From the NCBI RefSeq assembly GCF_054482595.1, contig NZ_CM137008.1: a stretch of DNA of 64,000 nucleotides; one strand, 5' to 3'. Position numbers: made by a program. Positions 50,301 to 53,300 of the stretch are shown here, one piece after another (the first letter of the stretch is position 1; each line of letters starts with the position of its first letter).

Positions 50301-53300
50301 GCCGCGCAGTTTTGCCAGCATTGGCTGAGCGTTCTTTACGACAAAATTGTTGGTATCAAGATTCTTCATTTCACGAAGAAGTGATTTCTTGGTTTCTTCT
50401 GACATGTAGCGAGTCTCATATGCAATATCGTAAATCCTTCCTGAAAGCTCAGAACCAATTTGCTTCATTCCTGGGTAGATGTGTTTGCACATTTGTTGAC
50501 TCTTCTCCATCCACAATTGTAAGTAGCAGAGATTAACCAGTTCTTCGTCAGTAAACTGTTTTGCAATCGGTGAGCATTCTGCCTGCCGATCCAAAATATC
50601 CAGCACCCAGCGGCGGAACTCTTTGGCTACCTGAGTGCGAGCAAACATCGCGATTAGGTGGGCACCGCGTAGTGAGAAAACACGCACTTTTTTGCGATAA
50701 TTTCCTGAGGTACTCACTTCGAGTACCTGAGTCATTCCGGCGCTAAACTCATCGCTATACTTGTTATAAATCATTGTTACTGCACGACTATTTGCGTATT
50801 TAAGTGCAGATGCAATATTAGATGATGTAAACCAAACACCATGCATATCACGGGTGGGCACCAATTCAACTCCGTGGAAGTTATAATCTGATTTTGCTAC
50901 AATATTCATGTTAGTTTCCTTGCATACGGTTACTGACATAGAGGCCCGGTTTGTGTTCACGCACTGCCGGGCTTCACTATTTTTACTGGGCATTAGCTCT
51001 TTCCTCTCTCAGGCTTTTAGCCAGTCGCTGCACAATCGCAGAGTTGATAGAAATTCCATCCATTTCAGCAACACGTCTAATCTCCTCCTTCATTCGCGCT
51101 GGCAAACGAAGCTGGAAACTTTGACTTTTACGACCTGTGTAAAGCACATCTTTCATAAGTAATCCTCCCACAATGATACCAACTTGGTTCTAGAACCAAT
51201 TTAACACCATTTATTTTGATGTCAAGTTGGTGCTATTGTTTAGCGAACATCTTTACGTTGAGGTCATATGAGCAAGTTCCCTAGTCATGAAATGGATAGG
51301 TTCAATATCAGGCTTCCTGCAGGAATGCGGGATGCTATAGCTGAACGAGCCAAACGTAACGGCAGATCAATGAACTCAGAGATTGTTCAGATACTGGAAG
51401 ATGCCTTGAATGCAGAAAATACACTCGGGGAAATAGCAGATAAAATCAACAGCGTCTCGGTTCCGCTAAATGTTGATGCGCTAGTTCAACTTCAAGCCCA
51501 GGTTATCGCCATGCAAAAAGAAATACAGGAAAAGTTCAGAGAGCAGAACGAAAAGTTGAGAGAACTGCTAAACAAAAAAACCACCTGACGGTGGGTTAAT
51601 TTTTGCCTTTTTTGGACCATATTGACTACTCATAAAATGAGATCAATATTTAATCGCCCAATAACGGGTGCATGTTGAGGTATATCATGGCGAAAAAACC
51701 AGGTGAAAACACAGGAAAAAACGGCGGAATATACCAAGAAGTTGGCCCGCGCGGAGGTAAGAAAGACAATTTTGCCACCGTCAAGGACAACGAAAGGCTT
51801 CCGCCAACAACAAAGCCAGGTCATGGCTGGGTATTAGATAAGCGAACTCCAGACAGCAAAAAGTAATAATCAAGCCGGGTCACTCCGGCTTTTTGATATG
51901 TCGCTCGCAGAACTCAACAAGCCTGCTCATTAAGTAGCAGTAAGTCTCGTTGGCTCTTCCTGGTTCAACATCAACGCCGACCCTTGAGCAGATATCGAAT
52001 GCCATGTGAGCGCACTCATGGGCAATAGTAGATAGTTTGCCATTGAACACACCTATCACATGCAAAACACCATTCTCGCTGCTCATTGTATGAGACGCTC
52101 CGTTGGCATCCGAGTCCTGCACGTCCACGCCAAGTTTTTGATGCAGGCGTTGCCATTCTGGAAAGTCTCTGCAAAACACAATTGTACCGCTCTCAAAGAG
52201 CGGAACGAGCATTTTTGGTACGTTTCCAATGTTAACTTTTTTCATGGTATCCTGCTCAAAACTAAGGAGGTTGGTGTGAAGAAAAAATTTGTAAACGTTG
52301 CAAAGTGCGCAATTTTTATATTTTTTATGACCTTTTACGGATTTAGTGCCGGAGAAGGTTTCGATCGTGATGCCAATGCATTCAGTTTCTTTTGTCTGTC
52401 TATAGTGGTCATAATTGTATGGGTGGAATTAAAGCAAACATTGTTTCATGTGCTAGGGAAATAACCATCCATGGCATTTAGTCACTGCTGTGTTGCCTCA
52501 GTGGCAAGCAGCGGTCTGATGGCATTTGCAGCGTTACTTAATGCTCTTTCATAGGCTGGCGTTCCTGCTTTGGTGTTTGCCAGACGTAAGAGCGCATTCC
52601 TGGCCATAGGGCTTTCATAAACCCTCGACATAAGGCCAATCCCTGTTTCCCCAGCCAATAGCGCGCCTCCGGTTTTTAGGTTACCAATAACCCTTACCAA
52701 AGGCGCGAGTGTCATGCCAGTCTTCGTCACAACATTAGCCTCAGATGCTCTTTTGGTAGCATCGAGAATAGATAACATCCCCTCTATCTCTTTTCCGTTC
52801 TTCCCACCAAATACAGTTTTAAACACCTGACCATTTGCTTGTTTTTGCAGCTTGCCAAGCTCGGTCATCATTTTCTGAGGGCTGTCACCTACCTTGTCAG
52901 CTATTTTGCTGATATATGCCGCCCTTAGCATGTCTTTACCTTTTTGATCGAGTTTCCCGTACAATCGAGCTATATCTGACCCATATTGTCCATACACAAT
53001 GGTATTTACAGCCTCGGGAGTTAAATCTCCTTTGTTTAGAACGTTTTTAAGGCGCGTTTGAGTTGCATGTGTTGCCATTTTTGCATAATCAGCTTTTCCC
53101 GCTCTCCATGCTGAAGCATCTTTTGGGCTAAGTCCTTTCGCTATAGATTTACTAAGGCTATTGGTTAGCGAGTTATAGACCCTGTCGACCATTGTTTGCG
53201 ACATTGATGGCAGAACTGTACGATCGCCTTTTACGTCAATGCGGAACTGAGTTCTCAGCTTATCAAGTAACTCAAAGGCATCATCTCCATTTGTTATCTC

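Follow-up and report, generated by a model that had tools for sequence, protein, structure and literature searches.

A repressor gene longer than P22 mnt

Within an E. coli P22-like prophage, the gene that takes the position of P22 mnt encodes a protein considerably longer than Mnt, and it is this length - its origin as well as its possible bearing on oligomerisation and operator recognition - that we address here, using a window of 64,000 nucleotides (contig NZ_CM137008.1, assembly GCF_054482595.1). The open reading frame (51268..51588, + strand), recognised by PGAP, Pfam and a phrog_1287 match, is intact and its 106 codons plus stop specify a 106-aa ribbon-helix-helix (RHH) protein; P22 mnt has 252 nt, i.e. 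83 codons, and the N-terminal Met of its product is removed. This agrees with an earlier note on this DNA, which had described a full-length Mnt-type RHH repressor, longer than its P22 counterpart, in an immunity-I-type region. The same note placed most of the additional length at the N-terminus and internally, which is only partly correct: of 23 additional residues just 4 belong to the N-terminus (11 rather than 7 residues precede the F-N-x-R strand), whereas 19 follow the MNSE motif (68 residues here as opposed to 49 in P22 Mnt), in C-terminal halves that cannot be aligned beyond the final KKTT. That tetrapeptide does end both proteins, as had been noted.

Judged against its relatives, the protein is not long at all. 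Among the 120 best homologues the median length is 108 aa, and the protein matches phrog_1287 (PHROGs v4, function unknown) with its residues 1-105 covering profile positions 1-108 of 115 (E=3.3e-47). The identical ORF in E. coli 55989 is deposited as WP_000033146.1 under the PGAP name ‘Arc family DNA-binding protein’. We conclude that 106 aa is typical for the family, with P22 Mnt as a short member, and that the gene is an ordinary, intact Arc/Mnt-type prophage repressor gene whose product - already in RefSeq and PHROGs - adds one more uncharacterised representative. The gene alone thus carries little weight; what is useful about it concerns annotation and phage biology.

Membership in the Arc/Mnt-type RHH family is evident from sequence and from a strand-helix-helix fold. 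The RHH core reported in the earlier note is recognised by the Pfam Arc model (PF03869) over residues 7-54 with 73.1 bits against a cut-off of 20.4 (E=1.6e-20), while BLASTP aligns P22 Mnt over residues 12-48 only, with 54% identity. Sequence searches of the PDB put Pseudomonas aeruginosa AmrZ first (3QOQ, 108 aa; E=1.3e-8, residues 4-53), ahead of the N-terminal domain of Mnt (1MNT, 6.6e-8) and Arc (3.5e-5). In the AlphaFold2 monomer model an extended segment precedes helix A (residues 20-31) and helix B (35-62; both within 51325..51453, + strand), and Foldseek returns AmrZ (52% identity) and Arc (1par) as the best fold matches at rmsd 1.2-3.3 Å over 42-47 aligned columns. Residues 21-50 are modelled at pLDDT 84-92, residues 51-68 with weak confidence and the whole chain at a low pTM (0.38); the β-strand is unassigned because it pairs only in the dimer. 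AmrZ resembles the protein further in its nearly equal length and its layout, in which the N-terminus is extended, the RHH domain follows and a C-terminal domain serves oligomerisation (PMC3325190). It differs in being a chromosomal global regulator that both activates and represses, rather than a prophage immunity protein, and in having an unrelated C-terminal region.

A C-terminal helix unrelated to that of P22 Mnt

Where the protein outgrows Mnt, AlphaFold2 places a single amphipathic helix of 36 residues (69-104, pLDDT 85-90; 51472..51579, + strand), which from its periodicity we presume to be a coiled-coil self-association domain: its hydrophobic period of 3.5-3.6 is heptad-like, as compared with 3.67-3.8 for the shorter C-terminal domain of P22 Mnt. 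Mnt residues 53-83 are known in structure as the tetramerisation domain (1QEY), yet a PDB sequence search gave no match between this domain and ours at E≤10. Since, in addition, BLASTP against Mnt stops at residue 48, a strongly diverged Mnt tetramerisation domain is ruled out on sequence, and the two C-terminal halves are, by the same measure, unrelated. So the protein is longer than P22 Mnt because its C-terminal helix is a different one - a non-homologous replacement and not an elaboration of the P22 protein. Foldseek with the monomer model returned RHH domains only and nothing for the helix, and an HMMER search with residues 48-106 of the whole library (1.84 billion representatives) detected no relatives beyond the protein's own cluster; two long repetitive proteins at E~1e-4 in that search look like compositional coiled-coil matches. 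Near-identical RHH domains are, in our homologue set, continued by C-terminal regions of 35-85 residues that come in many unrelated versions. P22 Mnt is hence no length standard for a class in which most members have 100-125 aa and C-terminal regions are interchangeable and unrelated.

What might such a helix do? Mnt's C-terminal domain stabilises tetramers and that of AmrZ oligomerises as well (PMC3325190). Most likely, going by the model, the helix here self-associates as a coiled coil, and oligomerisation altered relative to P22 Mnt is plausible. A comparable arrangement is seen in E. coli MatP, where an RHH core is followed by a C-terminal helix, a coiled coil in MatP, that joins dimers into tetramers; fold matches to MatP (4d8j, 3vea) are weak, however, the sequence relationship is limited to the RHH fold, and MatP adds a four-helix bundle and serves to organise the chromosome terminus. 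Alternatively, the variable C-terminal region might bind a partner or sense a signal - for example an antirepressor, a downstream gene product or a host factor - with its versions mirroring those of the partners. The many unrelated C-terminal regions carried by similar RHH domains would suit this idea, as would the failure of the library search to find homologues. No candidate partner co-varies with the domain, though: in Stx-converting phages the same domain occurs together with another arc, another ant and other neighbouring genes, which argues for a domain that acts alone. Together with the heptad-like, single-helix model and the oligomerising role of the Mnt and AmrZ domains, this makes partner binding unlikely to our minds, and we favour self-association.

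The KKTT tail and a 22-nt hairpin

The shared KKTT ending, which the earlier note had taken as a conserved feature of the protein, appears instead to originate in the DNA. A 22-nt hairpin (AAAAAAACCACCTGACGGTGGG, 51574..51595) found by terminator scan and folding is terminator-like on both strands, contains the KKTT codons plus the TGA stop and coincides with a mosaic junction (see below). The hairpin (AAAAAAMCCACCTGACGGTGGG) is followed by U7 on the - strand, so that it reads as a terminator for transcription from the opposite direction (folding z=-3.35). The tail exists because the reading frame runs into this conserved element, the U-run supplying the Lys-Lys codons and the stem those for Thr-Thr or Pro-Thr.

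The distribution of the 22-mer fits this origin. It was found at no fewer than 120 IMG/VR loci, which fall into 24 classes by upstream and 27 by downstream sequence; at 93 of 114 sites the end of a convergent ORF lies no more than 45 nt away. It also follows unrelated C-terminal domains and is found with no mnt gene in front of it at all. That KKTT might rather be a functional tail that goes back to an ancestor shared with P22 Mnt - with C-terminal domains that are highly diverged homologues and an incidental hairpin - could draw on the [KR]K[PTS]T ending of 37 of the 120 best homologues and on locus L129, where KKPT is kept through a synonymous AAG codon despite a different hairpin and a different stop codon, so that the tail may have some protein-level role. 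The 1MNT dimer construct reportedly lacks the last Mnt residues, with which the PDB chain lengths are compatible, and this suggests that the extreme C-terminus matters for the P22 tetramer. Against common ancestry, conservation extends to the hairpin's non-coding 3' arm, which has kept its complementarity. Moreover, the 22-mer is present at sites where it does not form the end of any RHH ORF (19 loci with a remnant ‘IMITPYKKPT’, and others); at locus L014 an 82-aa mnt product ends in GKDEK and the hairpin follows only after a Clp-protease-family gene; both flanks of the 22-mer are shuffled among loci; and our C-terminal domain lacks similarity to 1QEY. An inherited tail hence seems improbable, and we prefer to see KKTT as a by-product of the terminator-like hairpin rather than as evidence of shared protein ancestry. 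In more general terms, a common C-terminal tetrapeptide can stem from a DNA element, here a terminator read in frame, without protein homology.

A gene assembled from three parts

Comparison with related phages reveals that the gene is a mosaic of three parts. Up to about position 51340, identity to E. coli E7476 is ~100%. Between about 51320 (codon ~17) and the hairpin the DNA is nearly identical to the copy of a Stx-converting phage, which is diverged upstream of about 51318. At the hairpin, identity to P22 DNA begins and continues downstream (51596..51950, + strand; 96-97% identity to P22-like phages), including the homologue of orf59a (51687-51866; phrog_3202). Codons 1 to about 17-24 are inherited along with operators, promoter and arc, the remaining RHH domain and the C-terminal helix are common to Stx-converting lambdoid phages, and the last 5 codons, the stop codon and all downstream DNA are P22-type. 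The Stx-phage protein in question (YP_009909332.1, Stx2a_WGPS8; phrog_1287) likewise has 106 aa, is 88% identical overall and is encoded divergently from an arc-like and an ant gene; it differs in the first 16 codons, the intergenic region and arc, in a KKPT tail and in the location of its module among siphovirus tail genes.

Such mosaicism is in line with the description of the ‘ant moron’ as a region in rapid genetic flux, with ten types among sixteen genomes (PMC2629481). It raises the option, which we put at somewhat below an even chance, that the 22-nt hairpin is a conserved ‘linker’ for exchange of ant-moron modules among P22-like podoviruses, Stx-type siphoviruses and other prophages and, with a second recurrent breakpoint after the DNA-reading strand, divides the repressor gene into three cassettes: specificity arm plus operators, scaffold plus oligomerisation helix, and terminator plus downstream cargo. 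Were this so, mnt-type genes would read into the hairpin and unrelated C-terminal domains would gain the same KK(P/T)T tail. The upstream breakpoint would then in effect be the natural counterpart of the N-terminal Arc/Mnt swap of Knight & Sauer (1989), whose work - in the account given in PMC3325190 - assigns Arc/Mnt specificity to a short N-terminal region. As far as this account goes, it agrees with a natural breakpoint just after the strand. Clean natural breakpoints of this kind mark parts of a repressor that can be swapped, for instance in engineering orthogonal pairs of RHH repressor and operator.

N-terminal arm and start codon

The first of these parts, codons 1-17 (51268..51318, + strand), comprises the 11-residue arm and the β-strand R11-F-N13-I-R15, and its identity pattern and arm length mark it as a specificity segment. 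Its extent depends on the start codon, and the earlier note had named an internal Met, giving a protein of P22 length, as the finding that would overturn its reading. A start at Met9 is indeed what some gene callers annotate (cluster P0002 of 98 aa, 22 member sequences from JGI, begins MDRFNIRLP), but a Shine-Dalgarno sequence is missing before Met9 and present, as GAGG, 4 nt before the annotated ATG; the Stx-phage homologue and others have 106 aa without a Met at position 9; an arm of 11 residues is found in 87 of 118 homologues and one of 3 residues, as Met9 would leave, in just 2; and codons 1-11, hence residues 1-8, differ between relatives mostly by synonymous changes although the upstream 20 nt vary freely. 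It is at the annotated ATG that translation starts, and a 98-aa product is very unlikely.

Genetic context and candidate operators

Comparison of gene order, for which both the window and E. coli 55989 were used, places the gene where mnt is in P22: divergent from arc and ant, inside the late operon, with the ejection genes on one side and the tailspike gene on the other. Within this ‘ant moron’, the divergent operon consists of an arc-like gene for 57 aa, the first in order (50983..51156, - strand; Pfam Arc E=8.3e-12, PGAP), and, of other types than in P22, two antirepressor genes: one for 208 aa with Bro-N and P22AR_C domains (50283..50909, - strand; Pfam; phrog_245 ‘anti-repressor Ant’, E=7e-53) and one for 242 aa (49466..50194, - strand; phrog_1726 ‘anti-repressor’, E=9e-101). 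This arrangement of arc/ant versus mnt recurs in four unrelated loci. An RHH antitoxin or a plasmid-partition/stability protein, as source entries named ‘plasmid stability protein’ or ‘partition protein ATPase’ and weak Pfam/NCBIfam matches to FitA-like, BrnA and HicB RHH models might suggest, is scarcely credible, given that these matches span the generic RHH fold only and mostly stay under curated cut-offs (BrnA 18 bits versus 60; FitA-like_RHH does clear its domain cut-off, 31.9 versus 27 bits, yet is that same generic fold), that the neighbours are arc/ant and the orf59a homologue with no toxin or ParA partner gene nearby, and that it is arc and antirepressor genes that are conserved as partners; ‘partition protein ATPase’ is attached to P22 mnt as well and seems to be a propagated annotation error.

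We think it quite probable that, taken as a whole, the mosaic gene encodes the maintenance repressor that takes the place of Mnt in the immunity-I-type ‘ant moron’ of this P22-like E. coli prophage. The N-terminal half, an RHH domain of the Arc/Mnt/AmrZ type, would dimerise and insert a two-stranded sheet (R11, N13, R15) into the major groove with help from the arm. Coiled-coil association would then place two dimers on the two halves of a palindrome, TTGGTTCTAGAACCAA. This site overlaps the -10/+1 region of the promoter from which arc and the antirepressor genes are read leftward, and its occupancy would hold the antirepressors silent in the lysogen.

The palindrome came from an inverted-repeat search of the arc-mnt intergenic region, where the earlier note had recommended looking for symmetric operators, and is a perfect 16-bp core (51184-51199) within the candidate Mnt-like operator AACTTGGTTCTAGAACCAATTT (51181..51202). 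As a control, the same method recovers the annotated Mnt operator of P22 at the equivalent position relative to the ant promoter. The motif TTGGT-N6-ACCAA is expected 0.05 times per window; we take a second copy, at 30700-30715 inside a chromosomal ORF of 413 aa, to be a chance occurrence. The outer bases of the palindrome, TTGGT/ACCAA, are kept in loci L126 and L127 and in one locus from IMG/VR; in L129 one arm reads TTGGA. Among the related loci and P22, the palindrome differs where the strand residues differ: P22 Mnt reads GGTCCACCGTGGACC with H-N-R, as opposed to TTGGTTCTAGAACCAA and R-N-R here, so on sequence the suggestion of changed operator recognition is upheld. By analogy with P22, TTGGTTCTAGAACCAA is likely to be an operator that overlaps the ant promoter. 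In all, three overlapping symmetric elements in the intergenic region share TTGGT/ACCAA motifs, and it is by P22 positional analogy alone that the central one would go to the Mnt-like rather than the Arc-like protein.

The promoter it overlaps, predicted by consensus scan, resembles Pant, is of the sigma-70 type and would serve arc and the antirepressor genes (51198..51225, - strand; TTGACA, 16 nt, TG-n-TAAATT); it has 10/12 consensus matches and an extended -10, and both hexamers are kept in related loci. It is flanked by the inverted boxes ACAATGATACCAACTTG (51170-51186) and CAAGTTGGTGCTATTGT (51223-51239) of inverted repeat I2 (51170..51239), which are 82% complementary and persist as an inverted pair of altered sequence in L126 and L127. 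These boxes may possibly be sites for the Arc-like protein, and the right one may hold an extended -10 (TGCTATTGT) for mnt; a consensus scan of the + strand found no mnt promoter, and reading by hand gave weak candidates only.

Finally, folding points to a candidate sar-like antisense RNA across the arc-ant junction (50898..50985, + strand). Searching 49000-53000 against Rfam gave no match at E≤1, be it to sar or to another RNA family, and the consensus scan no sar promoter beyond weak candidates read by hand. The candidate has a TACAAT -10-like element, a strong hairpin (50941-50975) and after it a U-run, a fold energy of -39.2 kcal/mol (z=-6.0) and blocks of identity with the sar strand of P22.

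A correctly delimited gene in the Mnt position

The ORF at 51268-51588 (+) is intact with 106 codons, and DNA 99-100% identical to it is carried by 12 complete E. coli genomes. In strain 55989, PGAP calls exactly the same ORF as 'Arc family DNA-binding protein' (WP_000033146.1). It sits at the late-operon end of a P22-like prophage, opposed to - strand genes for an Arc-like protein (50983-51156), two antirepressor-family proteins (Bro-N+P22AR_C/phrog_245, 50283-50909; phrog_1726, 49466-50194), the tailspike (47341-49266) and ejection proteins. P22 mnt has the same opposed orientation, although P22 has a single ant where our window has two different antirepressor-family genes after arc (49466-50909, -). 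Villafane et al. describe this region as the 'ant moron', the most fluid portion of P22-like late operons (PMC2629481).

A refuting possibility, raised in the earlier note, was that the true start is an internal Met (Met9) giving a P22-length protein. Five lines of evidence speak against this. First, GAGG lies 4 nt upstream of the annotated ATG and no comparable site precedes Met9. Second, the Stx-phage homologue, also 106 aa, has Tyr at position 9. Third, among the 118 homologues whose strand motif (the DNA-reading beta-strand) can be recognised, the N-terminal arm is exactly 11 residues long in 87 and 3 residues long in only 2. Fourth, an alignment of 30 relatives shows hardly any variation at Met1. 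Fifth, codons 1-11 differ from three distant loci at 5-7 nucleotides but just 1-2 amino acids; in the 20 nt upstream of the ATG, 10-15 positions differ from the same loci. A start at Met9 is rejected on these five grounds. The gene is real, intact and delimited correctly, and encodes a ribbon-helix-helix (RHH) repressor in the Mnt position with a swapped C-terminal helix.

In the otherwise near-identical 55989 prophage, the tailspike gene is separated from the antirepressor genes by a third Arc-family gene (84 aa; L001 2027-2281) that is absent from the window, and the two tailspike genes are of different types. RefSeq and PHROGs give P22 mnt (NC_002371) and relatives (PHROGs 795/2685) the name 'partition protein ATPase', which on an 83-aa RHH repressor appears to be a propagated mis-annotation.

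Across the arc-ant junction, 50898-50985 (+) carries a TACAAT that resembles a -10, a highly stable hairpin at 50941-50975 with a U-run after it (-39.2 kcal/mol, z=-6.0) and identity blocks shared with the P22 sar strand. Neither Rfam nor a consensus promoter scan returned a match for this region, which is probably a sar-like antisense RNA.

An ordinary length with an unrelated C-terminal half

The protein was said to be longer than P22 Mnt, and with 83 codons in P22 mnt this length difference is real. Also as claimed, it has an RHH core (Arc-type, Pfam, residues 7-54, E=1.6e-20) and KKTT, the C-terminal end of both proteins. The extra length, thought to be mainly N-terminal and internal, is so only in part: the N-terminal arm contributes 4 residues (11 versus 7), and 19 follow the RHH core (68 versus 49 past MNSE). 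BLASTP alignment to P22 Mnt is restricted to residues 12-48 (54% identity). Nor does 'same protein, stretched' hold as a structural reading, since a PDB search with the C-terminal half found no relative at E<=10, the P22 Mnt tetramerisation domain (1QEY) included. HMMER, run without filters against 1.84 billion representatives, matched this half to its own cluster only; as judged by these searches, it is not an expanded P22 domain. AlphaFold2 (mean pLDDT 77) models helix A (20-31), helix B (35-62), a break (63-68) and a single long helix at 69-104 (pLDDT 85-90), amphipathic with a periodicity of 3.5-3.6, against a peak of 3.67-3.8 for the P22 domain. We infer that it is a coiled-coil helix serving self-association, as an analogue - rather than a homologue - of the Mnt domain.

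Within the family, both the 106-aa length and the gene as a whole are ordinary. Median length is 108 aa (range 66-149) in the best 120 of 538 homologues, which places P22 (83 aa) at the short end, and the window protein belongs to phrog_1287 over its full length. Its best PDB match, AmrZ (108 aa), is alike in plan, with an extended N-terminus, an RHH domain and a C-terminal region that oligomerises in AmrZ (PMC3325190).

Mosaic structure and candidate operators

On sequence comparison the gene is a mosaic. As far as ~51340, a stretch that takes in arc, the intergenic region and codons 1 to ~24, the match is to E. coli E7476; Stx phages match from ~51318 to 51595 and P22 from 51572 onward. In E7476 (L005 2819-3202), where arc, the intergenic region and the first ~24 mnt codons are the same, the Mnt-position protein has an unrelated continuation, a 127-aa form ending DIQF without the hairpin tail; this is a natural swap of the C-terminal domain inside E. 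coli. Relative to the Stx type, the upstream breakpoint lies directly past the strand (…RLP|AGMRD), so that the arm and strand, which read the DNA, move together with the operators and arc. A report cited in PMC3325190, according to which Arc/Mnt specificity is set by a short N-terminal region, agrees with this.

The proposed check of the arc-mnt intergenic region (111 bp) for symmetric operators yielded a candidate. A perfect 16-bp palindrome, TTGGTTCTAGAACCAA (51184-51199; 10/11 pairs when extended over 51181-51202), covers the -10/+1 of a sequence that resembles a promoter for the arc operon (51225-51198, -; TTGACA, 16 nt, TG-n-TAAATT). On P22, the same search retrieves the annotated Mnt operator at an equivalent distance from mnt; in lineages whose strand residues differ, the palindromes that it picks out differ too. 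Most loci with a D-R-F-N-(I/V)-R-L-P strand keep the outer TTGGT…ACCAA bases; L129, a related locus, has TTGGA on one arm. TTGGT-N6-ACCAA is expected 0.05 times per window. The only other exact match, at 30700-30715, lies inside a chromosomal 413-aa ORF remote from the prophage and, given this location, is judged to be chance. Two inverted 17-nt boxes (51170-51186 and 51223-51239), 36 nt from each other and 82% complementary, lie on either side of the ant promoter core and overlap the central palindrome. In related loci the boxes differ in sequence but are still paired in inverted orientation, and they may serve the Arc-like protein or hold the mnt -10.

A hairpin-encoded tail at a recurrent junction

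The one mildly new point is that the KKTT tail is hairpin-encoded and that the hairpin recurs as a mosaic junction. P22 DNA identity (96-97%) begins abruptly at 51572, ACAAAAAAACCACCTGACGGTGGG, and extends downstream across the orf59a homologue. Within the 3' end of the gene, a 22-nt element, AAAAAAMCCACCTGACGGTGGG (51574-51595), spans the KKTT codons and stop, which supply the 5' arm and the loop of the hairpin CCACC-TGAC-GGTGG. On the - strand, U7 comes after this hairpin, which makes the arrangement terminator-like, and the U-tract is the complement of the Lys-Lys-encoding A-run. KKTT is a DNA feature. The Stx-phage copy keeps the hairpin (tail KKPT), and similarity ends immediately past it.

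An exact search of IMG/VR with the 22-mer found at least 120 loci, in which the 22-mer ends either a non-RHH ORF or an RHH gene whose C-terminal region comes in at least 8 versions (83 to 132 aa). Flanks are shuffled: upstream sequences fall into 24 classes and downstream sequences into 27, which combine in many ways, and a convergent ORF terminates within 45 nt at 93 of 114 evaluable sites. Independently of this pattern search, a [KR]K[PTS]T ending is shared by 37 of the best 120 protein homologues even though their C-terminal regions are unrelated. Of four loci retrieved through protein identity, three finish with AAAAAACCCACC-TGA-TGGTGGG; because the fourth retains KKPT with a different hairpin, the tail may also have a minor protein-level role. 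In its behaviour the element resembles a conserved terminator or a boundary between modules.

In one IMG/VR locus (L014 1463-2294), an 82-aa mnt-type gene ends GKDEK and is separated from the conserved hairpin by an inserted Clp-protease-family gene (PF00574, 178 aa), which looks like cargo gained within the mnt transcription unit.
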